DNA of 64,000 bases from Parcubacteria group bacterium GW2011_GWA2_40_23 (GTDB lineage Bacteria > Patescibacteriota > Patescibacteriia > UBA11705 > JABHMO01). The notes beneath the pieces are model-generated. The model did not search any database. It was not told where the DNA came from and saw only the letters and a program-made list of their open reading frames with translations. This document shows positions 1,064 to 63,622 of this stretch, piece after piece (positions within the stretch are counted from its first letter, which is position 1; each line of letters starts with the position of its first letter). Both the position numbers and the translations under genes were made by a program. The DNA lies in contig LBYP01000001.1 of NCBI GenBank assembly GCA_000996245.1, forward strand, positions 17,197 to 81,196, in the 5' to 3' direction.

Positions 1064-2320
1064 TTACTCGTGTCCCAAAGCATCAATCGGGTTTTTATGG
1101 GCCGCTTGTTGCGCAGGATAAAGACCAAAAACTAGCCCCACAAAAACTGACATAAAGACTGCGGCCAAGATGCCTTTCCACGAAACGGAAAAATCCCAAT
1201 TGTAGCCAAGTAATTGCGCTATCACTGAAACTAAATACGAAAGTAAAACACCTAGTACAATGCCGACTAGACCGCCGATTGAGGTTACGATAACTGATTC
1301 AGCGAGGAATTGCCACAAAATGTTTTTATTTTTTGCGCCAAGAGATTTACGTAAACCAATCTCGGGCGTGCGTTCAGTTACAGATACATACATAATATTC
1401 ATGATACCGACTCCGCCGACTATGAGGGAGATGGAACCAAGGGCTAAAAGCAAAATTTGGATGCCATAGATAATTGTTCCGAGCATGTCCATGGCTTGTT
1501 CCATAGTAGTGATAGCAAAATCATCTTTGTCTGGGTCGGTTATTTTATGACGTTCACGCAAAGTTAAGGTGATGTCTTCGGCCGTACTTGAAGAAAGGCT
1601 GGTGTCATAGACTTGAGCCAAGATAAAGCTGACGTAATCAATGCCGAGAAGTCTTTTTTGGATGGTTTGTACTGGGATAAAAGCCATGCCATCCATATCT
1701 AGGGCAAAGCTAGCGCCTTTTTCTTTTAAAATACCAATTACCTGAAATTTTTCTGAACCAATTTTTATGGATTCACCAACTGCAGGGGAGTCACCAAAAA
1801 GATTGTTTTTAAGTTTTGAGCCTAAAACAACCACTTTGCTTAAAGTGCGATCTTCTTCGTTAGTAAAAAACCGTCCAAATTCTACTTCGCTGGTATCGAT
1901 ATCAATAAAACCAGCACCGCAGCCAAAAAGATTCGCTTTTTTAAATTCATTTTCATAACTCAAAATTTCTTGGCCCATGACAGCGGCATAATAGTTTTTG
2001 ACGTTGGGTAATTTGGCAATAGCTTCAGCATCAGTTAATTTTAAAGTTGTAATTACGGAGCCCCCCACCATGCTAAAAGAATTTTCGCTGGAAGTGTGTG
2101 ATGTTTGGGGAGTTTTTACTTCCACTTGAATATAATCTGTTCCAAAAGCCTGTACTTCACCAACAATAAATTGTTTAATGGCTTGTCCAATCGATAAAAC
2201 AGAAATAACTGCGGTAATACCAATGGCTATGCCTAAAATTGTTAATAAAGTGCGTCCCTTGTTTTTGTTTAGGGCGTTTTGTGCAATTTTAACTGAATTG
2301 ATGAGTAATTCTTTATTCAT
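1064..2320 (-). CDS. ABC transporter permease, FtsX/MacB family
   Basis: 418 aa. N-terminal TM helix, large extracytoplasmic domain, then three C-terminal TM helices with the conserved FtsX region (GIMNIMYVSVTERTPEIGLRKSLGA). Confidence 0.8.
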   Translation of the reverse strand: MNKELLINSVKIAQNALNKNKGRTLLTILGIAIGITAVISVLSIGQAIKQFIVGEVQAFGTDYIQVEVKTPQTSHTSSENSFSMVGGSVITTLKLTDAEAIAKLPNVKNYYAAVMGQEILSYENEFKKANLFGCGAGFIDIDTSEVEFGRFFTNEEDRTLSKVVVLGSKLKNNLFGDSPAVGESIKIGSEKFQVIGILKEKGASFALDMDGMAFIPVQTIQKRLLGIDYVSFILAQVYDTSLSSSTAEDITLTLRERHKITDPDKDDFAITTMEQAMDMLGTIIYGIQILLLALGSISLIVGGVGIMNIMYVSVTERTPEIGLRKSLGAKNKNILWQFLAESVIVTSIGGLVGIVLGVLLSYLVSVIAQLLGYNWDFSVSWKGILAAVFMSVFVGLVFGLYPAQQAAHKNPIDALGHE

Positions 2321-3548
2321 AATGAAGAGCTGAAATAGGATCTAATTTGGCGGCTTTTCTGGCTGGATATAAGCCAAAAATTAAACCAACAAGGGAAGAC
2401 ATAAAACAGGCGAGGATGATTGAACTTAACGTAATAACAAAGGTCCAATCATAGCCGAGCTTATTAACGACGATTGAGATGAGATAGGAAAGGAGAACGC
2501 CAATAACAATGCCAATGATTGCTCCGAGAGTAGTAATAACTAAAGTTTCCAATAAAAATTGATAAATAATTTGTTTAGCTTTAGCGCCGACGGCCTTGCG
2601 CAAACCAATTTCTTTAATTCTTTGAGTAACCGCTGCCAACATGATGTTCATAATTCCAATACCACCAACAATTAAAGATATTGAAACAATGGCCAGAAGA
2701 AAAAACTGGAGAGAGTTTGTGATGGTGCCTAACATCACTTGAGCATCATTGGTGTTGCGAACAGAAAAATCATCCTTGCCTGGGTCTTTAATATTGTGTC
2801 TTGTTCTTAATATGTTTTCAACTTCAGAGACAACATAGTCAGTATTATCTTCGCTATCAACTTTGATGCGCATAAATCCAATGTGCTTGATGCCCAAGAT
2901 TCTTGTTTGTGCCGTTGTCACTGGAACAAAAACCATGTTATCAACATTTTGGAAACCAGAAGTGCCTTGTGGAGCCATAATGCCAACGATTGTAAAGCTA
3001 TTTTGTTTGATGTTAATTTTTTGACCGAGCGGATCAGCGCCTTTAAATAAATCATCTTTTATTTGCGAGCCAATAACGGCCACGGTGGCGTTAGTTTTTT
3101 TATCTTCTTCTGTAAAAAAATCACCCGATTCTAATTTGGAATCAGCTATGAGAGGGTAGTCAGACGAAACTCCATAAATTGGTGTAACTGTTTTTTGATC
3201 TTCCCAAGTTGCGGTCTCAGTTGCACTAACATAAGAGCAAGCTGCCACGACGCTTGGTAGTTCTTTTTTAATCGCTTCAGTATCAGAATCTTTTAATGAT
3301 GTAATAACAACGCCAAAAACAGCGGCTGGAGGACCGTTTTCATCTGATTTTCCAGGAAGAACACCGATGACGTTTGAGCCGATGCCACGGATTTGGTTGG
3401 TAATTAAACTTTCAGCCCCAGCCACAACAGAGGTAATGGTAATAACCGAAGAAATGCCGATGATAATTCCCAGCATTGTCAAAAACGAACGCATTTTATA
3501 GCTGCGTAAGTTGGTAAATGATTGTTTGACTGTGGCGCGTATGAGCAT
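2313..3548 (-). CDS. ABC transporter permease, FtsX/MacB family (second copy)
   Basis: 411 aa with the same architecture (GIMNIMLAAVTQRIKEIGLRKAVGA). Overlaps the downstream permease by 8 nt. Confidence 0.8.
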   Translation of the reverse strand: MLIRATVKQSFTNLRSYKMRSFLTMLGIIIGISSVITITSVVAGAESLITNQIRGIGSNVIGVLPGKSDENGPPAAVFGVVITSLKDSDTEAIKKELPSVVAACSYVSATETATWEDQKTVTPIYGVSSDYPLIADSKLESGDFFTEEDKKTNATVAVIGSQIKDDLFKGADPLGQKINIKQNSFTIVGIMAPQGTSGFQNVDNMVFVPVTTAQTRILGIKHIGFMRIKVDSEDNTDYVVSEVENILRTRHNIKDPGKDDFSVRNTNDAQVMLGTITNSLQFFLLAIVSISLIVGGIGIMNIMLAAVTQRIKEIGLRKAVGAKAKQIIYQFLLETLVITTLGAIIGIVIGVLLSYLISIVVNKLGYDWTFVITLSSIILACFMSSLVGLIFGLYPARKAAKLDPISALHYE

Positions 3549-10533: not shown

Positions 10534-11856
10534 ATGATTGAAAAACCTCCCAAATGGGAAGAACTATTATCAGGGGAGCTTATTAGGAAAGTTCATGATT
10601 CTAAGGAAACTCAAGAAATTTTGAGTAAGGCACAAAAGGAATATGTTTATTGGGATAAATTTAAGTATTATTTATTTCCTAAAAATGTAACACCCAAAGA
10701 GGCCTGGGCATTCTTAAAAATTTCAAGATCCTCAAATGAAAAAACTCCCATTAAGTCTATTACAGGGAGCACTTTTACTTATAATCTTCCAAAAAGTTTA
10801 TATCAAAAATTAAATTTTATTGACACTCACGGAGCGGGTTTGCTTAAGAGTTTTAAAGACAGACCTTCAAGTACACAGACAGTAAAATATATAATTAGCA
10901 GTTTGGCTGAAGAAGCTATCGCTTCTAGTCAAATTGAGGGCGCTAATACTACACATAAGGTGGCGAAAGAAATGATTTTATCTCAAAGAAAACCACGTAA
11001 CAGAAGTGAACAAATGATCGTAAATAACTATTTGGCTATGCAAAGGGTCTCCGAATGGAAAGACATGGATTTAACAGAACAAATGTTGCTTGATCTGCAA
11101 AAGACCATCACAGACCAAACAATTGATGAGCCTACTAGTGTTGGTAGGTTTAGGAATGATGAGGATCAAATAGTTGTAAGCGATCCAATAACAGGCGAGA
11201 TAGCGCATATTCCGTTTAAACGAGAAAAGATGTTGTCTGAATTAAAGAGGTTGATTGATTATGCTAATAAGCCGGAGGACGATGATGACTTTACTCATCC
11301 TGTTGTAAAAGCGACTATTTTGCATTTTTGGTTTGCCTATTTACACCCTTTTGTAGACGGTAACGGGAGATCCTCAAGAGCTCTTTTTTATTGGTATTTA
11401 TTAAAAAATAATTATTGGCTTATAGAGTATATTTCTGTTTCTAGAACAATTAAACAAAGTAGAAAAGCATATGACAATGCGTTCTTGTATAGCGAAAATG
11501 ATGATAATGACTTGACCTATTTTTTGCTTTATAATGCCGAGATATTCAAAAAATCAATTCTTCAATTTTTGGAATATTTTGCGGAAAAAATGAAAGAGGT
11601 TGATGAATCGAAGAAGACCACTTCGTTGTTGGGTATATTTAATTCCAGACAAGTTATGTTGCTTAAATATTTTCTTTCTCATATTGATGAATACACTGAC
11701 GTTATAACACATCAAAATAAGCACGGAATATCACGTCCTTCCGCTTATAATGATCTTAGCTTTTTGGTGGGAAAAGGATATCTTGCGAAGACAAGAAAAG
11801 GAAAGAGGTTAGTGTATATGCCAAATGCAACAAAAATTAAAGAAATATTTAATTAG
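10534..11856 (+). CDS. fic: Fic/DOC-family protein (AMPylation/filamentation induced by cAMP)
   Basis: 440 aa. Canonical Fic motif HPFVDGNGRSSR (HxFx(D/E)GNGRxxR) and a C-terminal winged-helix-like region. Confidence 0.8.
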   Translation: MIEKPPKWEELLSGELIRKVHDSKETQEILSKAQKEYVYWDKFKYYLFPKNVTPKEAWAFLKISRSSNEKTPIKSITGSTFTYNLPKSLYQKLNFIDTHGAGLLKSFKDRPSSTQTVKYIISSLAEEAIASSQIEGANTTHKVAKEMILSQRKPRNRSEQMIVNNYLAMQRVSEWKDMDLTEQMLLDLQKTITDQTIDEPTSVGRFRNDEDQIVVSDPITGEIAHIPFKREKMLSELKRLIDYANKPEDDDDFTHPVVKATILHFWFAYLHPFVDGNGRSSRALFYWYLLKNNYWLIEYISVSRTIKQSRKAYDNAFLYSENDDNDLTYFLLYNAEIFKKSILQFLEYFAEKMKEVDESKKTTSLLGIFNSRQVMLLKYFLSHIDEYTDVITHQNKHGISRPSAYNDLSFLVGKGYLAKTRKGKRLVYMPNATKIKEIFN

Positions 11857-11858
11857 TT

Positions 11859-14162
11859 ATGAATGAATCAGAAACTAGAGCTGAATATATTGACCCCAAA
11901 CTCAAAGCAAGTGGTTGGGGTGAAGTCGAAGGGTCAAAAGTTCTAAGAGAATTTAGAATTACCGATGGTCGTATCCAAACGGGCGGACTTCGAGGTAAAC
12001 CTGAAATTGCTGATTACATTTTAGTTTATAAAAATTGTAAGATTGGTGTAATTGAAGCCAAGGCTGAAAATTTAGAAGCAACTGAAGGTGCAGCACAAGC
12101 AAAATCTTATGCGCAAAAACTGCAAATAGATTATACCTATGCCACAAATGGCAAAGAGATTTATGAAATATCGATGGGTACGGGTAAAGAAAAAAGTATT
12201 GCTGATTTCCCGACACCTGATGAATTGTGGAATAAAACTTTTTCAAATCAAAATGAATGGAAAGAAAAATTTGCTAATCAACCAAACGAAGGCGAATATG
12301 GGAAACGTTATTATCAAGAAATTGCAATTAATAATGTGTTAAATGCTGTTGCAGAAGACAAAACAAGAATTCTTTTGACCATGGCCACTGGAACTGGGAA
12401 AACAGCGGTGGCATTCCAAATCGCCTGGAAACTTTTTCAAACTCGTTGGAGTTTAAACCCAGACGGTGGTCGACGGCCAAGAATTTTATTTTTAGCAGAT
12501 CGAAATATTTTAGCTGATCAAGCTTTTAATTCATTCTCAGCTTTCGATAAAGACGCACTTGTTCGCATAAATCCGTTAGATATTCGTAAAAAAGGCGCAG
12601 TTCCAAAAAGTGGAAGCGTCTTTTTCACTATTTTTCAAACTTTTATGAGTGGCCCTGATGGGACGCCTTATTTTGGGGATTACCCAGCAGATTTTTTTGA
12701 TTTTATAGTTATTGATGAGTGCCATAGAGGTGGAGCTAACGACGAAAGTAATTGGCGCGGAATATTAGAATATTTCTTTCCAGCCGTACAACTTGGTTTA
12801 ACAGCTACGCCAAAGCGCAAAGATAACGTCGATACATATAAATATTTTGGCGAACCTGTATATACATATTCGCTTAAGGAAGGTGTTAATGATGGTTTTT
12901 TGACTCCATTTAAGGTTAAAAGAATTCAAACTACCTTAGATGATTATGTTTATACTTCGGATGATCAAATAATTGAAGGAGAAGTTGAGGTTGGTAAAGT
13001 TTATACGGAACCAGAGTTCAATAGAACTATTGTAATTGAACAACGAGAAGCAAAACGTGTAAAAGTATTTCTTGATGACATTAATCAAAACGAGAAGTCA
13101 ATCATTTTCTGTGCAACTCAGGGACACGCTCTTTTGATTCGTGATTTAATAAATCAAATGAAAAACAGTAAAGATCCTAATTACTGTGTACGAGTAACAG
13201 CAAATGACGGCGCACGAGGAGATCAATTTTTGAGAGAATTCCAAGATAATGAAAAGACCATCCCAACGATTTTAACTACATCACAAAAACTTTCAACAGG
13301 TGTTGATGCACGCAACATTCGTAATATAGTATTAATGCGTCCAGTAAACTCGATGATTGAATTCAAACAAATTATTGGGCGAGGGACTAGACTTTTTGAT
13401 GGGAAAGAATATTTTACCATCTATGATTTCGTTGATGCATATAAGCATTTTTCTGATCCAGAATGGGATGGTGAACCTGTAGATGAGTCTACCGAGAGAG
13501 AACCGAAGATCAAAAAATTGAAAGCTGTAGTGGAAACATTACCACAGCCTGAACCAATATATGAACCAATGGAAAAGTTGAAAATAAAGTTGCGTGATGG
13601 TAAGGAGCGAGAAATTAAACATATGATTTCTACTTCATTTTGGAGTGCCGACGGGAAACCAATATCCATCCAGGAATTTATGGATAACATGTTTGGTGCT
13701 ATGCCTGAGTTCTTTAAGAGTGAAGAAGAATTACGGAAAATTTGGTCGAATCCAACTACACGTAAAGTGTTTTTAGATAAAATTGCTGAAAAAGGCTATG
13801 GCAAGGATGAATTAGAGACTTTGCAAAAAATGGTTGATGCTGAACAAAGCGATTTATTTGACGTTCTAACTTATATTTCATTTTTAACACAACCTATTTC
13901 AAGAGTGGAAAGAGTTGAACAAACAAAAGATAAAATTTTCAAAGGACTTGATGCAAAACAAAAGGAATTTTTAGATTTCGTTTTGACAAAATATGAAGAG
14001 AAAGGTGTTGAAGAATTAGATGAGGACAAGTTGCCCATACTGTTAAATTTAAAATATCATGCCATAGCTGATGCTGAACAATTGCTCGGAAGCGTCGATG
14101 ACATCCGATCAATTTTCTTCAATTTTCAGAAGAATTTATATGCTAAACTAAGTAATAAATAA
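11859..14162 (+). CDS. hsdR: Type I restriction enzyme R subunit (helicase/endonuclease)
   Basis: 767 aa. N-terminal nuclease region, Walker A TMATGTGKT, DEAD-like VIDECHRG, helicase C motifs (QIIGRGTR). Confidence 0.85.
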   Translation: MNESETRAEYIDPKLKASGWGEVEGSKVLREFRITDGRIQTGGLRGKPEIADYILVYKNCKIGVIEAKAENLEATEGAAQAKSYAQKLQIDYTYATNGKEIYEISMGTGKEKSIADFPTPDELWNKTFSNQNEWKEKFANQPNEGEYGKRYYQEIAINNVLNAVAEDKTRILLTMATGTGKTAVAFQIAWKLFQTRWSLNPDGGRRPRILFLADRNILADQAFNSFSAFDKDALVRINPLDIRKKGAVPKSGSVFFTIFQTFMSGPDGTPYFGDYPADFFDFIVIDECHRGGANDESNWRGILEYFFPAVQLGLTATPKRKDNVDTYKYFGEPVYTYSLKEGVNDGFLTPFKVKRIQTTLDDYVYTSDDQIIEGEVEVGKVYTEPEFNRTIVIEQREAKRVKVFLDDINQNEKSIIFCATQGHALLIRDLINQMKNSKDPNYCVRVTANDGARGDQFLREFQDNEKTIPTILTTSQKLSTGVDARNIRNIVLMRPVNSMIEFKQIIGRGTRLFDGKEYFTIYDFVDAYKHFSDPEWDGEPVDESTEREPKIKKLKAVVETLPQPEPIYEPMEKLKIKLRDGKEREIKHMISTSFWSADGKPISIQEFMDNMFGAMPEFFKSEEELRKIWSNPTTRKVFLDKIAEKGYGKDELETLQKMVDAEQSDLFDVLTYISFLTQPISRVERVEQTKDKIFKGLDAKQKEFLDFVLTKYEEKGVEELDEDKLPILLNLKYHAIADAEQLLGSVDDIRSIFFNFQKNLYAKLSNK

Positions 14163-38949: not shown

Positions 38950-40026
38950 CTACGCCTTGGCGCCGTCGCGGATGGCGCGGCAGCGGGCGAAGCCGAAGGG
39001 GAACAGGGGGCAGGACGAGCCGGCGCAGATGCCCATGAGGCACATGGCGGCGTGCTCTGCCGCGTAGTAGCGGGGGTCGAGCGCGATCTTCACGATCTGG
39101 ATCAGCCGCTCGAACGGGATCTTGGTCGGGTCGATGCCCTTGGCAGAGTGCGACCCGTTCAGGATGCTGTGACCGTGTGCGAAGTGCCACACGCTTTCTT
39201 CGTCGTCGCCGCGCAGCTTCTTCTCTTCTACCTCGATGGCGTTGGCGAGGTCGCTCAGGTCCAGTCCCAGGCGCTGGTCGGTCTGGATCGCCACGTTCCC
39301 GCGGGAGTCGATCTTGACGACGACCGCGGCGTTGGCACCATGCTGGCTACGAGCGTAGCGCATGATCGCCATCGAGTCGCTCCGCACCGAGCACAGGGTG
39401 ATGTCCCCCTTGCTGCTGCGGATGGTCTCGATCTTGGAGTTGGCCTCGAAGTCCTTCTTGGAGGTCTCCACGAAGTCGAAGTGATCGAACACCTTCGCCT
39501 CCATCCCCAGCTCCAGCCATTTTTTCCAGTTCCTCTTGTCCTGGGCCAGCAGCATTGCGATGAGCTGAAGGCTGTAGTCGTTCGACGGGTTCAGCTCGCC
39601 GATCTTGACGTCGAAGGCCGCGTAGGCCCACTCCAGCATGTCGACGGCAGGGACGTTCTGCATCCCCATGAAGGTGAGGATCCTGCAGAGGTTGAAGGGT
39701 TGGTCGCCGGAGTTCGTGTCGTTCTTGTGCACGTAGTTCAGCAACCCCGCGATCTGCGGGGTGTGCTCGACGTGCAAAGCGTTGGCCAGCAACATGGCGC
39801 TGCTGGTTTCGCCAGACTTCATCAGGTGGTCGTTGAAGCGACCCTTGCCCACGCCGAACTCCAGGATGCCTTCGGGCGAGGCGTACTCGCGCAAGAAGGC
39901 GGGCGTGCCCCAATTTTCGGCGATGTAGCAGCACAGAAACTCGTCCGGGTGAGGGTTGGTATGCGTCACCACGATGATTTTGCGTCCCGCCACTTTGACG
40001 GGAATGCGGATCGTCTCTCTGGCCAT
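38950..40026 (-). CDS. GC-rich island-1 gene: putative UPF0160/MYG1-like metal-dependent hydrolase
   Basis: 358 aa with normal amino-acid composition and strong G/C third-position bias. VVTHTNPHPDEFLCCYIA resembles the MYG1 THxGxFHxDEALAC motif. GVGKGRFNDH and HFAHGHSILNGSH resemble later MYG1 metal-site segments. Consensus SD GGAGG lies 7 nt upstream. Confidence 0.6.
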   Translation of the reverse strand: MARETIRIPVKVAGRKIIVVTHTNPHPDEFLCCYIAENWGTPAFLREYASPEGILEFGVGKGRFNDHLMKSGETSSAMLLANALHVEHTPQIAGLLNYVHKNDTNSGDQPFNLCRILTFMGMQNVPAVDMLEWAYAAFDVKIGELNPSNDYSLQLIAMLLAQDKRNWKKWLELGMEAKVFDHFDFVETSKKDFEANSKIETIRSSKGDITLCSVRSDSMAIMRYARSQHGANAAVVVKIDSRGNVAIQTDQRLGLDLSDLANAIEVEEKKLRGDDEESVWHFAHGHSILNGSHSAKGIDPTKIPFERLIQIVKIALDPRYYAAEHAAMCLMGICAGSSCPLFPFGFARCRAIRDGAKA

Positions 40027-40294: not shown

Positions 40295-40373
40295 TGGTGG
40301 ACGCTAGTGGGGTCGAACCACTGACCTCCTCGACGTCAACGAGGCGCTCTAGCCAACTGAGCTAAGCGTCCAC
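40295..40373 (-). tRNA. tRNA-Val (anticodon GAC)
   Basis: GTGGACGCTTAGCTCAGTTGGCTAGAGCGCCTCGTTGACGTCGAGGAGGTCAGTGGTTCGACCCCACTAGCGTCCACCA. 7-bp acceptor stem, anticodon loop TTGACGT, encoded CCA. Confidence 0.85.
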
Positions 40374-40616: not shown

Positions 40617-40693
40617 TGGTGGGCCTGATGGGACTCGGACCCATGACCCCCACTTTATAAGAGTGGTGCTCTAACCAGCTGAGCTACAGGCCC
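40617..40693 (-). tRNA. tRNA-Ile (anticodon UAU)
   Basis: GGGCCTGTAGCTCAGCTGGTTAGAGCACCACTCTTATAAAGTGGGGGTCATGGGTCCGAGTCCCATCAGGCCCACCA. Ile-type body (resembles tRNA-Ile GAU) but the anticodon loop is CTTATAA. The T-loop is TCCGAGT (C at position 55). Confidence 0.7.
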
Positions 40694-50290: not shown

Positions 50291-50377
50291 GCTCAGGTGG
50301 CGAAATTGGTACACGCACTACCTTGAGGTGGTAGCGGCCGCAAGGCCATGGAGGTTCAAGTCCTCTCCTGAGCACCA
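50291..50377 (+). tRNA. tRNA-Leu (anticodon GAG), with a long variable arm
   Basis: GCTCAGGTGGCGAAATTGGTACACGCACTACCTTGAGGTGGTAGCGGCCGCAAGGCCATGGAGGTTCAAGTCCTCTCCTGAGCACCA. Encoded CCA. Confidence 0.85.
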
Positions 50378-50522
50378 TAAAGTACACGATTCTCGTGACT
50401 TTATGGCTGGTCATGGAGTTAACTTCTGGTATACTTCAGGGTGAACCATGGTTTTAAATAGATGAATTTAATAGTCCTTAAGTGTTATTTTTTTGACATG
50501 CCATGTCCCAGTTGACGAAACA

Positions 50523-50552
50523 GATTTTTGGTGTTAAAGTAATGAGTCCATT
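50523..50552 (+). promoter_or_regulatory. Candidate promoter for island-2 (TTGACG-17-TAAAGT), followed by the SD GGAAGGGAGAG
   Basis: Seen directly in the AT-rich leader immediately before the GC-rich block. Confidence 0.4.
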
Positions 50553-50597
50553 GAACAGTGCAAAACCTGATTCCGCGGGAGGCGGAAGGGAGAGAAA

Positions 50598-51324
50598 AAT
50601 GCGTCCTATACCTTTACCCGATCGCCTGGACCTAAAACTCCAAGAGATCAACACGAAGCTACGAGGCTTCGGTGTTCCGTTCGACCTGTCTCGTTTGGGG
50701 AATTTCCGCAAGGGAGATTGGCAGATTGACGATGTCATTTCTGTCTTTGCTCATCGGGAGTTCAAGATCGCGGTCTGTTTCATCCTTTTGAAGCCGTGGA
50801 CTGGTGAGCGAACTGAGTATTGGTGCCAGTTCAATAGCACCTACTCGAGCGAAGCTCTGTCCGGCCACATCGTGATTCCCGTGGTGAACGGAACGCACTT
50901 TTTGATGATCAAGTCGTACGGGACTTTCATCGGAGTAGCGCCGCTCCTTTTTCCCCGAGGATTCATCCCGAAGTCGAAAGAGGATTTGCCGGCCGTGGTA
51001 GTTGCGCAGAGTTTGATCGAGCGCAAGCTCGGGGATTGCCTTACGGCTGTCCAGGGTGAAGTTCAAGGTCAAGCTCAGCTTCTGCGTGGTGAGCGCGGCA
51101 CCTTGCGTCTGGCCGAAGATCAGAGCACCAGCGGAAACTGGGTTACAGTCTCGGTCGTCCAGATCAAACTGGATATGGCCAAGTTCGAAGAACGACCCAA
51201 GGATTTCCGTGCGTTCAAGTTGGTTGCCATCAGCGATTTCCTTCAGCGAGTTGTCGCAGGCGAGATCGTTGATATGCACTCTCTTTCCGCATACGTGATG
51301 TACACGGCGGCGAGCAAAGGCTAG
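50598..51324 (+). CDS. GC-rich island-2 gene A: degenerate Nudix-fold-like protein
   Basis: Start chosen at MRPIPLPD, with SD GGAAGGGAGAG 5 nt upstream. The track's 50503 start lies in the AT-rich promoter. LFPRGFIPKSKEDLPAVVVAQSLIERKLG occupies the Nudix-box position but lacks the canonical REx2EE. Confidence 0.5.
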
Positions 51325-51399
51325 CGGGAGGCTAGTCTGGACAATTCTGTTTTCTGACTGTTTAGACGGGAGGTCTGACAGTGAGAAGGCAAGGTTGCT

Positions 51400-52077
51400 A
51401 TGATTCGAGATCTGTTGAAGGCACTCGCTCAGGGTGCCACGGCGGGTTGGAAGCTCCGTGTCAACGGAGTGGAAGTCCCGGCGAACGAAGTCGAGCTCGA
51501 GAACCTCAAGTTCGGGATGATCCGTTGGGGTTCCCTCGGGAGCTACGACTCCTGGGGCTTCCAGGAGGTGGGCGGTGGTGGTGCGGTCCTCGTGCCGTAC
51601 TTCGTCCACCCCGAGCGTGGCATCGTGGTCGGCCTGGTGCAGCAGCCCCGGCCGTTCATGTCCGAGAAGCCGGTGTGGAACCTGCCGCGCGGCTTCATGA
51701 ACCCGGGCCAGACGCACTTCAAGTCGGCCACGGGTGAAGCCCTCGAGGAGATCGGCTCCACCGACGGCAATCGCATCTTCCTGCTGAACGGTGAGCCGGC
51801 CAACCCCAACTCGACCTTCTTCGTCACTCGTGGCAACAACGCCGACGGCAGCCCCAAGGGCATCCGCTTCTACGGCGTCGGCTTCCTGCCCAGCGAGTTC
51901 GAGCCCGAGGGCAACGGCTTCAAGTTCAAGCCTGGCGTGGTCGTTCCGGCCACCAAGGACGCCGAGAAGATCATGGGCTGCCGGTTCGTCGACTGGATGG
52001 AAGCGACGCAGCTCGGCTGCATGATGACCATCTCGGGCGTCGCTCGTCTCGTCGTGTACAAGTACACGGATCTCTGA
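51400..52077 (+). CDS. GC-rich island-2 gene B: Nudix-hydrolase-like (ADP-ribose pyrophosphatase-like) with a variant Nudix box
   Basis: GGGAVLVPYFVHPERGIVVGLVQQ...WNLPRGFMNPGQTHFKSATGEALEEIG = G-x5-Q-x7-GE-x2-EE-xG. The canonical Nudix box is G-x5-E-x7-RE-x2-EE-xG. Confidence 0.55.
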   Translation: MIRDLLKALAQGATAGWKLRVNGVEVPANEVELENLKFGMIRWGSLGSYDSWGFQEVGGGGAVLVPYFVHPERGIVVGLVQQPRPFMSEKPVWNLPRGFMNPGQTHFKSATGEALEEIGSTDGNRIFLLNGEPANPNSTFFVTRGNNADGSPKGIRFYGVGFLPSEFEPEGNGFKFKPGVVVPATKDAEKIMGCRFVDWMEATQLGCMMTISGVARLVVYKYTDL

Positions 52078-52084
52078 TCCACAA

Positions 52085-52120
52085 CCCCCATTCGATGCAA
52101 GGTCGAGTGGGGGCATTTTT
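52085..52120 (+). terminator. Terminator of island-2 (CCCCCA-t-TCGA-tgcaagg-TCGA-g-TGGGGG-catTTTTT)
   Basis: Seen directly. Confidence 0.55.
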
Positions 52121-52139
52121 GTTGCGAGGAACGATAGTG

Positions 52140-52495
52140 ACGAAGCAATCTGTTGTTACGAATAACTTCATAAAGTTGAAGGTTACGAATTATTTCTTAC
52201 GAATAGAATATTCTAATTGGAAGTTTCGAATTATTGTTAACATCTAATTGTTAAGCAGGCAGGTAACATCAAAATAGATGGTTCTATTCGTGAAACGGGA
52301 GCAGTAATTAGTAACATCAATATAGAATGTCTTATTCGTAACCATTTTGTCGAACCTCGTGGTTCATGCTATAATTTTAGTGAAAATATAATAACAAATA
52401 CAAGCTCATAGCTTATAGCAAGTTAGCTTATAGGTGCTAAGCCTTTGGATCATAAGTACCTAGAAGCTATAAGCTAGATTGCTAAAAGCTATATA
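52140..52495. promoter_or_regulatory. Repeat-dense intergenic region: six or more copies of TTACGAATA/TATTCGTAA, plus AGCTTATAG/CTATAAGCT direct and inverted repeats
   Basis: TTACGAATA-type copies at about 52155, 52183, 52199, 52227 (direct) and about 52285, 52330 (inverted). GTAACATCAA(A/T)ATAG occurs twice. AGCTTATAG occurs twice, with CTATAAGCT once, at 52410-52480. Confidence 0.4.
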
Positions 52496-52501
52496 AAAAA
52501 T

Positions 52502-52738
52502 ATGCTTGGACGTATCATCCTTGGTCTGATTTTGTGTGTGGTGGGTTACTTCTTTGTCTGGAAACCCTTAACCTTTCTTGATCTCATCGGCCCGATACCC
52601 TTTGCTGAAAAATGGTTTGGCAATAGTGTGTCTTTTTATAAATTCGTGGGCGTTTTTATTATTATGATTGGTTTTTTAGCCATTACTAACCTTCACGGAC
52701 GTGTACTTGAGTGGTTAGTTGGTTTTATAGCAAGATAA
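52502..52738 (+). CDS. Small membrane protein
   Basis: 78 aa with two TM helices. Confidence 0.45.
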   Translation: MLGRIILGLILCVVGYFFVWKPLTFLDLIGPIPFAEKWFGNSVSFYKFVGVFIIMIGFLAITNLHGRVLEWLVGFIAR

Positions 52739-62426: not shown

Positions 62427-62714
62427 TTAGCTTCGTGATTTGATCTGCTCGGCACGATCCCACGCAGCCTGGATCGTAGCGGAGGTCGGGCCAAGATCCG
62501 GGTTCTCGTACGGATATTGGCGTCCTGGAAAGAGGGTCGGATTTTCTTGGCCACAGGAACAGAACCACCCCGTAGCGTCGCTATTCAAGACATTGGCTGT
62601 TTTGTGGCATTTGCCACAAGTGGCGCCTGTCATGCCTGGATAAGCAGCCCAAGTGGTCATGGCCTCGACCAGCTCGTCTTCGGTGTAGCTGTGGAAACGG
62701 TCCTTCGCCATCAT
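62427..62714 (-). CDS. GC-rich island-3 gene: small Cys-rich zinc-ribbon-like protein
   Basis: 95 aa, with CGKCHK...CSCGQE. Confidence 0.5.
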   Translation of the reverse strand: MMAKDRFHSYTEDELVEAMTTWAAYPGMTGATCGKCHKTANVLNSDATGWFCSCGQENPTLFPGRQYPYENPDLGPTSATIQAAWDRAEQIKSRS

Positions 62715-62722
62715 AGCCTCCT

Positions 62723-63319
62723 TTACACGGTCGCTTGCGCGACCGGTTGCGCAAATTGGTGTCGTTGCTTCTTGAGCGGTTCGCGCAGATAGATGACGAC
62801 GAGCTGGAAGTCGTTATAACTGCGCTTACGCCATTGACGCCATGACCCACAGGAGGCACCGAGGTTCGTTCCCTTGAGGACGAACCAGGGAGCCAAGTGT
62901 CCGTACGGATTGGGGATGATCTCGAGTTCATGGTAGCCGGGTGCGAGAGCGATGGGGTCCTTGCATTTGGGCTGGTTGCTATCATAGACCGTGTGCTGTG
63001 ATCCTCGAACCAGCGCGTAGATGTGCTTGGTCTTGCGGTAGTGGAGGGTCACGCCGCTCTCGGGGTCGGCGGACTTGGCCTGCCAGGCGTCGCTGGCGAT
63101 GCCGGTCATGGTGCCGGTGAGGACGTACCACGGCGAGCCGTGATCGAAGCCGTACGGATTTTCCACTTCTTCGAGCTGGTAGTAGCCAGGCTCGAGAGTG
63201 TAGTCCGCGAAATCAGGATCACGGTCGAGATCGCGGTCTGCCTCGGTCTGAGGAACGTGCTCGAACAGCCGAATTGGCTTGCGCACCAGGGCGAAGATGA
63301 ACTGTTTTCTTTCGATCAT
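62723..63319 (-). CDS. GC-rich island-3 gene: protein built from two copies of an unrecognised ~90-aa domain
   Basis: Repeat 1 is FIFALVRK...PGYYQLEEVENPYGFDHGSPWYVLTGTMTGIASDAW. Repeat 2 is HIYALVRG...PGYHELEIIPNPYGHLAPWFVLKGTNLGASCGSW. Confidence 0.55.
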   Translation of the reverse strand: MIERKQFIFALVRKPIRLFEHVPQTEADRDLDRDPDFADYTLEPGYYQLEEVENPYGFDHGSPWYVLTGTMTGIASDAWQAKSADPESGVTLHYRKTKHIYALVRGSQHTVYDSNQPKCKDPIALAPGYHELEIIPNPYGHLAPWFVLKGTNLGASCGSWRQWRKRSYNDFQLVVIYLREPLKKQRHQFAQPVAQATV

Positions 63320-63331
63320 CGCCGTTACTCC

Positions 63332-63622
63332 TTACGCTGTTACGATGAGGGTGGGCGGCGGGGTCAACTTGATGTTGAGCGGCGTGTCCTGGATGATTAC
63401 CGTCGGCCAGTAGTTCTTGCAGGCGCCGATCTTGCTGCCCTTGATCACGTACCAGGGAATTTCGTGTCCCAGCGGGTTCTTGATCTCTTCCAGTTCGTAG
63501 TCGCCGGCCGCGAGCTCCAACTTGGCGTGGTAGTATTCCGGCTTTCCAGCGAGGTTACCTTGGAAGACTGTGAATCCGGGGAGCTTGAGGTGGACGTAGA
63601 TGAACTTTTCTTGCGTAGCCAT
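63332..63622 (-). CDS. GC-rich island-3 gene: single-domain paralog of the same ~90-aa domain
   Basis: FIYVHLKL...AGDYELEEIKNPLGHEIPWYVIKGSKIGACKNYW. SD AAGGG lies upstream. Confidence 0.55.
   Translation of the reverse strand: MATQEKFIYVHLKLPGFTVFQGNLAGKPEYYHAKLELAAGDYELEEIKNPLGHEIPWYVIKGSKIGACKNYWPTVIIQDTPLNIKLTPPPTLIVTA

Follow-up and report, generated by a model that had tools for sequence, protein, structure and literature searches.

A Conserved, GC-Rich Pair of Nudix-Fold Genes in AT-Rich Parcubacteria

Closest Described Systems

Nudix diphosphatases of the ADP-ribose/nucleoside diphosphate (NDP) sugar type, such as E. coli NudF and NudE, the Bdellovibrio NudF 5c7q, human NUDT5 and NUDT14, combine an N-terminal beta domain with a Nudix domain that bears the REx2EE glutamates, and have a conserved X-loop proline. 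A proline about 16-17 residues after the Nudix box is a marker of ADP-ribose diphosphatases, and enzymes of the ADP-ribose pyrophosphatase (ADPRase) type form domain-swapped dimers in which both chains contribute to the sites (PMC5389931). This article describes two neighbouring genes, here called A and B, that encode Nudix-fold proteins in Parcubacteria group bacterium GW2011_GWA2_40_23, an AT-rich member of the candidate phyla radiation (CPR) from Rifle groundwater (contig k127_1415298 of PRJNA268031). They lie in a 64-kb stretch of its genome (contig LBYP01000001.1, positions 17,197 to 81,196). This stretch is called the window, and coordinates refer to it unless another contig is named.

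Gene B has the two domains, the REx2EE glutamates and the X-loop proline of these diphosphatases. It is unlike them in its sequence (12-17% identity), in the Q and G of its box, in a score below the Pfam cut-off, and in the GGGG and NPN motifs of its family. The family is also confined to CPR-like contigs, and its members in nine lineages have a dead Nudix-fold gene, gene A, as partner.

Several Nudix folds are not enzymes, among them NrtR, NadQ, the NUDT9-H domain of TRPM2, CFIm25 and the C-terminal domain of MutY. Unlike these, gene A lacks a recognisable domain for DNA binding or channel function, it always lies directly upstream of an apparently active Nudix gene, and its distant relatives keep an intact box. 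GDP-mannose mannosyl hydrolase (NudD/WcaH, from the colanic-acid cluster) cleaves at the sugar C1 and has no partner pseudo-enzyme. The pair differs from it in subfamily and chemistry, and in the window it lies outside any sugar cluster.

Islands have been reported in Patescibacteria, and ancient transfers are expected to lose their GC signal (PMC12455944). Like horizontally acquired islands, the locus shows a sharp contrast in GC content and codon usage, a position beside a tRNA gene and variable gene content in relatives. Unlike them, it has no integrase and no att repeats, its anomaly is limited to coding sequence, it is inherited across seven lineages, and its GC content at third codon positions (GC3) is stationary.

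The reading favoured here, by somewhat more than an even chance, is that the pair forms a conserved, self-contained Parcubacteria operon of a diphosphatase-type protein B and a dead partner A, and that it is GC-rich by maintenance and not by recent transfer. Both proteins belong to a well-known superfamily, as new and divergent members. As far as searches show, the operon is undescribed; the literature searched held no description of the A-B pair or of maintained GC-rich genes in CPR.

The Locus and Its Composition

The GC content of the window is about 36-38%, and it climbs to 0.52-0.66 between 50.5 and 52.1 kb. Two plus-strand open reading frames (ORFs) fill this stretch, 50503-51324 and 51400-52077. 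The first opens too early. All homologues of its product are about 241 amino acids long, and a conserved GGGAG Shine-Dalgarno (SD) sequence lies 6 nt upstream of M33 of the 273-residue frame, so the start of gene A is placed at 50599. The promoter falls within the spurious N-terminal extension. Gene A (50599-51324, 241 amino acids) and gene B (51400-52077, 225 amino acids) share one reading frame and are separated by a 75-nt spacer (51325-51399). Outside the cassette, a tRNA-Leu(GAG) gene called by ARAGORN and Rfam occupies 50291-50377 on the same strand.

Gene A has a GC content of 0.53 and gene B of 0.64; the flanking genes lie at 0.32-0.39. The GC3 values of A and B, 0.64 and 0.87, can be set against a background of 0.297 (standard deviation 0.042, maximum 0.389) in 61 other ORFs of the window, which gives z-scores of 8.2 and 13.7. 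The GC-rich cassette seen in the first-pass annotation is therefore a real and significant anomaly. By codon position, GC is 0.58, 0.39 and 0.64 in gene A, 0.61, 0.43 and 0.87 in gene B, and about 0.47, 0.30 and 0.30 in neighbouring genes. The enrichment is restricted to coding sequences; the promoter and leader (50378-50598) are 39% GC.

An assembly chimera is ruled out by identical junctions in independent ENA, JGI and Logan assemblies. A structured RNA is ruled out by the codon-position pattern together with confident Nudix models, which make the region coding. Rfam gave no match in 50380-52520 at the gathering threshold, and one chance-level match at E up to 1.

Two Nudix Folds from Different Subfamilies

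Structure models give both proteins the alpha/beta/alpha sandwich of the Nudix fold. In a profile search against the Pfam NUDIX family, gene B scores 18.5 bits, below the cut-off of 21.1, and gene A has no match. Both proteins carry a (V/I)P segment, a gap of about 20 residues, and then PRGF(I/M) at the position of the Nudix box, as the first-pass annotation noted. It had also called them paralogues. Two Nudix folds are confirmed, but to call them a paralogous pair goes too far, as the two are not detectably similar otherwise (BLASTP E = 0.73, hhalign probability 2%). By sequence comparison A and B stem from two different Nudix subfamilies and are not close paralogues.

The box of gene B has exactly the form first proposed for it, G98-x5-Q104-x7-G112-E113-x2-E116-E117-x-G119. 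In place of the first glutamate and the arginine of the canonical box it has Q and G, a change found in the window and in the related contigs L001 and L076. E113, E116, E117 and P136 are invariant across the family. The 13 relatives of gene B in the databases are all from CPR-type contigs. Most of these carry a precomputed NUDIX match, weak where its strength is listed, and most have the canonical GX5EX7REX2EEXG box.

The best solved relative of the B-family profile is NUDT5, an ADP-sugar pyrophosphatase (E 0.003), and gene B aligns structurally with NudF, NudE and ADPRases over 147-160 residues. The N-terminal beta domain, which in this type of enzyme is the dimerisation domain, is followed by the Nudix domain, and an invariant NPN motif puts P136 in the X-loop, 16 residues past the last box residue. 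P133 may be the equivalent proline instead of P136, because an alignment of hidden Markov models sets the DPG of NUDT5 on EPG. With its metal-binding glutamates intact, gene B looks like a Nudix diphosphatase of the ADP-ribose/NDP-sugar type.

Gene A differs at the catalytic positions. Its box reads R142-K143-L-G-D146-C147 instead of RE-U-x-EE. K143 is invariant in the family alignment, and position 147 is never acidic but always hydrophobic or Cys. Two of the three catalytic glutamates are lost, so the protein lacks a catalytic box with metal-binding glutamates and would be unable to act as a classical hydrolase. The first-pass annotation had judged gene A to be further eroded than gene B and perhaps a pseudo-enzyme or partner; with RK and DC where RE and EE belong, it probably is.

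The gene A family has invariant motifs of its own: GVPF..L.RLGN, FN.TYS.EA, FP(R/H)GF and LAED.(S/G)TSGN. Nothing was found for it in Pfam (E up to 10), NCBIfam, PADLOC or PHROGs, and there was no match by sequence in PDB. An exhaustive profile search of 1.84 billion representatives found only 26 relatives. Distant ones retain RELxEE, and two score above the threshold for Pfam NUDIX. Because these distant relatives keep RELxEE where gene A reads R-K-L-G-D-C, gene A appears to be a dead member of a once-active subfamily. This subfamily is very small and, as far as literature searches show, undescribed.

Inheritance at the Locus

The locus is syntenic in seven lineages: the window, L001 (with L002, L003 and L012), L016 (Parcubacteria GW2011_GWC2_38_7), L076, L077, L013, and L004 (with L005, L007 and L014). 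The common order is arginyl-tRNA synthetase (ArgRS), bactofilin, diacylglycerol kinase, ferredoxin, tRNA-Leu, A-B, a gene for 78 amino acids, UPF0102, a MamF-like gene and pyruvate kinase. In L001, A is 93% identical to its window counterpart, B 90% and the flanking proteins 89-98%. The corresponding values are 79%, 62% (partial) and 82-90% in L016, 61%, 60% and 63-76% in L013, and 55%, 57% and 55-74% in L004.

The identities of A and B (55-93%) rank the lineages as those of the flanks do (55-98%), and within each lineage they are equal or somewhat lower. In L016 and L013 the pair is somewhat more diverged than its flanks. On this synteny and matched divergence, the pair has evidently been at the locus since before the seven lineages split. 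It is GC-rich in all seven, with a GC3 of 0.54-0.70 in A and 0.62-0.94 in B and of 0.29-0.37 in the flanks. A conserved locus in relatives was one of the findings that might have undone the view of a foreign cassette; the conservation is there, and the composition that goes with it is abnormal, not normal.

The tRNA gene follows the ferredoxin gene in L001, L004 and L016 as it does in the window. Other genes take up between 0 and 8.6 kb of the interval from it to gene A. Nothing intervenes in the window or L016, L001 has glycosyltransferase genes there over the full 8.6 kb, and L004 has a radical-SAM gene and one for 143 amino acids. In five other lineages, four of them on contigs long enough to judge, the pair has no tRNA gene within 7 kb. 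Adjacency to tRNA-Leu is thus not supported as a property of the cassette, and no integrase is present.

Mobile elements were also considered and rejected. For an island targeted to a tRNA gene, the flanking genes have housekeeping Pfam domains, none of them a recombinase, and other genes stand between the tRNA gene and A in relatives. The only repeat that brackets the pair, an att-like 15-nt direct repeat, AAGTACACG(A/G)(T/A)TCTC (50380-50394, just after the tRNA gene, and 52060-52074, at the 3' end of gene B; 13/15 matches), is at chance level in 2.4 kb, where about 3 are expected by our own estimate. Integron-type cassettes have an IntI integrase and attC sites with an R''/R' core (GTTRRRY); the neighbourhood has no integrase, and the G+C-rich stems with T runs are terminators without an attC core.

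Outside the clade, A-B pairs are near-normal in composition in L010/L018, L011 and L017, and one lies on a GC-rich contig, L020. Gene B occurs alone in about 35 further lineages.

Some relatives carry additional genes. Gene C encodes a GC-rich protein of 300 amino acids with an EFPRGI motif; it follows B in L001 (11689-12591) and precedes A in L013 (8129-9034), with 68% identity between these copies, and the window lacks it. In L001 a terminator and a TTACGAAT box are duplicated on either side of it (11530-11620 and 12630-12730), so its absence from the window can be a simple deletion between repeats. Gene C may be a third Nudix-fold relative, given weak in-register similarity to the N-terminus of B and the PRGF region of A (hhalign probability 1-5%). 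In L077, two tandem B genes (P0003 and P0009, at 366-1887) have GC3 values of 0.83 and 0.55. The second copy, B2, has a TTGAC-containing promoter-like sequence upstream, and a CCCCCATTCGATGCA-type terminator follows both copies.

Maintenance of High GC Content

Acquired genes are expected to drift towards the composition of their host, and an exchange test can show whether A and B are doing so. Silent third positions of conserved residues were compared between the window and L001, counting switches between the G/C and A/T classes. Parsimony polarisation with distant outgroups proved biased, and unpolarised exchange probabilities were used instead.

In six flanking genes taken together, a G/C site is A/T in the other genome with a probability of 0.53 (range 0.26-0.61) and the reverse with 0.20, which implies an equilibrium GC3 of 0.27; the observed value is 0.30. 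For gene A the two probabilities are 0.14 and 0.23, implying 0.62 with 0.63-0.66 observed. For gene B they are 0.05 and 0.38, implying 0.88 with 0.87 observed. When the window is compared with L016 and with L076, flank silent sites are saturated (0.60-0.68), and the equilibria are 0.60-0.62 for A and 0.75-0.82 for B.

Since G/C sites in A and B are not lost at the flank rate, neutral amelioration does not account for the pattern. Since their A/T sites turn over as much as those of the flanks or more, neither does a recently shared copy. A and B are each held at a stationary GC3 of their own, and their composition is not the fading mark of a recent transfer. The first-pass annotation had described the pair as compositionally foreign, in the sense of recently acquired. 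That description is not supported, as the pair is inherited at the locus across the clade and its GC3 is at equilibrium.

At 24 of 26 loci across CPR the B-family gene has a higher GC3 than the ORFs beside it (median excess 0.15), so the GC-rich tendency belongs to the gene family and not to this genome alone. Gene B favours codons ending in C (40 C and 3 T among NNY codons) and in G (29 G and 4 A among NNR codons). Host genes show the opposite, with 48 C and 220 T, and 76 G and 234 A. Ordinary translational selection is an unlikely cause: no background ORF exceeds a GC3 of 0.39, and gene B prefers G-ending as well as C-ending codons. The leading candidates are selection on silent sites, acting on mRNA or DNA, and biased gene conversion.

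A rival account is that the pair, like two other GC-rich islands of the window (islands 1 and 3, described below), came from GC-rich donors as a foreign island and is refreshed, by repeated transfer or by conversion from an unseen GC-rich master copy on a plasmid, a virus or a GC-rich CPR relative such as the L032 organism. The third-position profile of gene B (C 0.51, G 0.36, T 0.10, A 0.03) resembles the codon usage of a high-GC genome and is almost that of the unrelated gene of island 1. B homologues lie on the GC-rich contigs L032, L043 and L051, and L032 also has a homologue of the island-1 gene, about 2 kb away. The cassette has been rearranged, with gene C before A or after B between duplicated terminator-plus-box repeats and a second B in L077. 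Near-normal GC in the copies of L010, L011 and L017 is what amelioration would give.

The exchange test tells against this account, as the G/C silent sites of A and B are 4-10 times more stable and their A/T sites turn over at the flank rate or faster, which is stationary behaviour and not that of a young copy. Searches of 5.8 billion proteins and 241 million metagenome records turned up no close copy flanked by GC-rich sequence; all close relatives sit in the AT-rich syntenic locus. There are no viral relatives in IMG/VR. The divergence of A and B tracks flank divergence in rank over the seven lineages, and the non-coding parts of the cassette have host composition. A refreshed foreign island is accordingly considered unlikely, and maintenance of the GC content within an inherited operon is preferred.

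Expression Signals

The layout upstream of gene A is common to all nine lineages that carry the gene: the terminator of the preceding gene, TTGAC, TAA(A/G)(G/T)T, about 50 nt of leader, and a hairpin immediately ahead of the SD sequence. In the window a consensus scan places the -35 box TTGACG at 50512-50517 and, after a 17-nt spacer, the -10 box TAAAGT at 50535-50540, on the plus strand. TTGAC and the TAA of the -10 box are invariant in all nine lineages with gene A, whatever the genomic context.

The hairpin region covers 50566-50592 on the plus strand. UUCCGC (50571-50576), a GGGAG loop and GCGGAA (50582-50587) are followed directly by the SD sequence GGGAG (50588-50592). Across nine sequences, 96% of alignment cells are paired and four of the six pairs show compensatory changes. 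None of 500 shuffles reached this covariation score, and slid controls were 43-63% paired. RNAalifold lengthens the helix into the SD sequence by pairing CC(U/C) with its first Gs; in the window, CCU (50566-50568) pairs with the first three G. The hairpin is present in the minimum-free-energy fold of the window sequence, a fold no stabler than shuffled sequences (z = 0.06). The extension of the helix into the SD sequence suggests that the hairpin may limit ribosome access, which would make it a candidate translational control element.

Genes A and B are read as co-transcribed because a terminator scan finds none in the spacer between them. In each of the nine A-bearing lineages, gene B lies 75-125 nt downstream of A on the same strand. 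An intrinsic terminator, CCCCCATTCGATGCAAGGTCGAGTGGGGG with a T run and a 12-pair stem, follows gene B at 52085-52120 on the plus strand (52085-52113 before the T run), and hairpins of the same type end B, gene C and B2 in L001, L013, L076 and L077. The promoter-like TTGACG-17-TAAAGT, the SD sequence and the CCCCCA...TGGGGG terminator with its T run were all proposed from the letters of the window alone. They are backed by conservation in nine lineages, and with them the proposal that the unit has its own regulation.

Past the terminator, TTACGAAT...GTTGAAGGTTACGAAT boxes at 52153-52234 on the plus strand form a direct repeat, D1, which marks the cassette boundary upstream of the 78-residue gene. 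Between the terminator of B and that gene (52153-52342), TTACGAAT and ATTCGTAA boxes are found both as direct and as inverted copies; these are the array of short repeats noted in the first-pass annotation. They may serve the operon of the 78-residue gene and UPF0102 as operators, or they may be recombination scars.

Spurious Antisense Gene Calls

A minus-strand ORF of 485 amino acids (50659-52116) runs across both genes. An antisense gene would explain constrained silent sites, and this one was rejected: the frame is codon-aligned with A and B and stays open only at high GC3, with 4-15 stops in the AT-rich homologues of the two genes. It is open because TTA, CTA and TCA codons are avoided in A and B, as a by-product of GC-rich codon usage.

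Public gene calls nevertheless give the 485-residue antisense ORF in place of A and B (L072, 4158-5615, minus strand). In L001, the closest relative, a wrong-strand public call of 235 amino acids (10760-11467) masks gene B. This artefact made B seem replaced there; tblastn finds it at 90% identity. As a result of such calls A and B are under-represented in protein databases, and counts of homologues among predicted proteins are too low.

The B homologue of L010 (10804-11481) has a GC3 of only 0.40, and its 217 codons contain no TTA, CTA or TCA, which leaves the antisense frame fully open. This copy, an outlier among those of normal AT content, may be formerly GC-rich and now ameliorating.

Possible Functions

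Neighbouring genes point towards sugar metabolism. At 43 non-redundant B loci, the neighbours include RmlA-type nucleotidyltransferase (14 loci), RmlB-type dehydratase (12), IMPase-family phosphatase (8), RNaseH-like protein (7) and RmlC (5). In L017, the A-B pair is flanked by rmlB and an rmlD-rmlA fusion. Protein B would hydrolyse an NDP-sugar or ADP-ribose-like compound, and A could be a non-catalytic partner or a ligand-binding or sensing subunit of B. By analogy with the domain-swapped dimers of ADPRase-type enzymes, the two might form a heterodimer. Most likely, the pair would trim or sense a nucleotide-sugar or ADP-ribose-like pool tied to envelope sugar (dTDP-rhamnose) metabolism, and would not serve in phage defence.

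The same neighbours could suggest that A and B together are a split NDP-hexose 2,3-dehydratase of the EvaA type. EvaA acts on the RmlB product dTDP-4-keto-6-deoxyglucose, towards dideoxy sugars, and has two Nudix folds, with one active pocket and one remnant; the inactive domain is a leftover of duplication (PMC8987622). An active and a dead Nudix protein, found between rmlB and rmlD-rmlA in L017 and with rml genes beside B in 12-14 loci, would fit. Most of the rml-linked loci, however, carry B without A, and gene B still has the REx2EE glutamates of a hydrolase and an ADPRase-type architecture. At E up to 10, no Pfam family besides NUDIX is matched by either protein; they show neither sequence membership of the dehydratase family nor its two fused Nudix domains. 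A split dehydratase is improbable on this evidence.

The first-pass annotation proposed that the pair could be a phage-defence or anti-defence module, one that would destroy or sense NAD, ADP-ribose or a signalling nucleotide. Accessory defence loci do resemble an active and dead Nudix pair with a private promoter, in a variable spot by a tRNA gene and with odd composition, and gene B is of the ADP-ribose-diphosphatase type. Against this, PADLOC gave no match for A or B at E up to 1, PHROGs gave only a marginal generic Nudix match, and IMG/VR held no relatives of either. No effector or sensor partner is present. The recurrent neighbours elsewhere are dTDP-rhamnose, other sugar-nucleotide and housekeeping genes, those in the window are ArgRS, bactofilin, diacylglycerol kinase, ferredoxin, UPF0102 and pyruvate kinase, and inheritance across the clade is stable where sporadic turnover would be expected. 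A role in defence is very improbable, the least probable of the alternatives.

Some observations also weigh against an inherited operon of a diphosphatase and its dead partner. The box of gene B carries E104Q and R112G, and between the window and L001 gene B has 23 amino-acid and 24 silent differences, while pyruvate kinase has 40 and 188; with the raised ratio of non-synonymous to synonymous changes added to the two substitutions, the activity of gene B may be altered or relaxed. The first 90 residues of the gene A structure model are of low confidence. The case for vertical inheritance is drawn from shared gene order and matching divergence rather than a supported phylogeny, and neighbour-joining trees, which are without support values, put the AT-normal copies of L010 and L011 among the GC-rich ones. 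The leader hairpin is short, and the power of nine related sequences is limited. There are no rml genes in the 64 kb of the window, and the link to sugars comes from other lineages, most of which have B without A.

Other GC-Rich Islands in the Window

Island 1 is a single ORF of 358 amino acids on the minus strand (38950-40026), with a GC3 of 0.90 (z = 14.5), no family match and a third-position profile that nearly matches the one of gene B. It has only two relatives, P0025 at 48% identity and, at 25%, a gene at 1988-3175 of the GC-rich contig L032. The latter has sugar-transferase genes around it and a B homologue about 2 kb away. In L068 the public call is an ORF of 195 amino acids instead of the 358-residue one, and apparently corresponds to the out-of-frame 39347-39934 of the window.

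Two tRNA genes on the minus strand stand beside island 1. The tRNA-Val(GAC) at 40295-40371 is called by ARAGORN and not reported by Rfam at the gathering threshold. ARAGORN gives the tRNA-Ile at 40617-40693 the anticodon UAU, an uncommon way of reading AUA.

Island 3 (62427-63622, minus strand) contains ORFs of 95, 198 and 96 amino acids with GC3 values of 0.62-0.80 and no Pfam match. The 198-residue protein contains two copies of a module related to the 96-residue protein.

Implications

One tentative generalisation, held with clearly less confidence than the operon itself, is that accessory genes of AT-rich CPR genomes may have long been kept at extreme, gene-specific GC3 values of 0.6 to 0.94 by a force on coding sequence only. 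Besides the Nudix pair, this small set of "compositionally insulated" genes would take in C and B2, which sometimes accompany it, and probably also the genes on islands 1 and 3. Selection might act on the silent sites, through mRNA stability, resistance to an A/U-specific nuclease or throttling of expression, or the force could be strongly biased conversion. If this is true, such genes are a previously undescribed phenomenon, and atypical composition in these genomes is no reliable sign of recent transfer.

The pair is a concrete, checkable counter-example to the rule that atypical GC content means recent horizontal transfer. Because this anomaly is inherited and in equilibrium, island-prediction tools would mislead here, and so would the amelioration clock. 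The antisense calls are a systematic annotation error: gene callers trained on an AT-rich genome choose the spurious ORF, and A and B are largely missing from protein databases. Finally, in organisms that have hardly been studied by experiment, an operon that joins an active-looking Nudix protein to a dead one offers a tractable target for biochemistry on enzymes and their partners.

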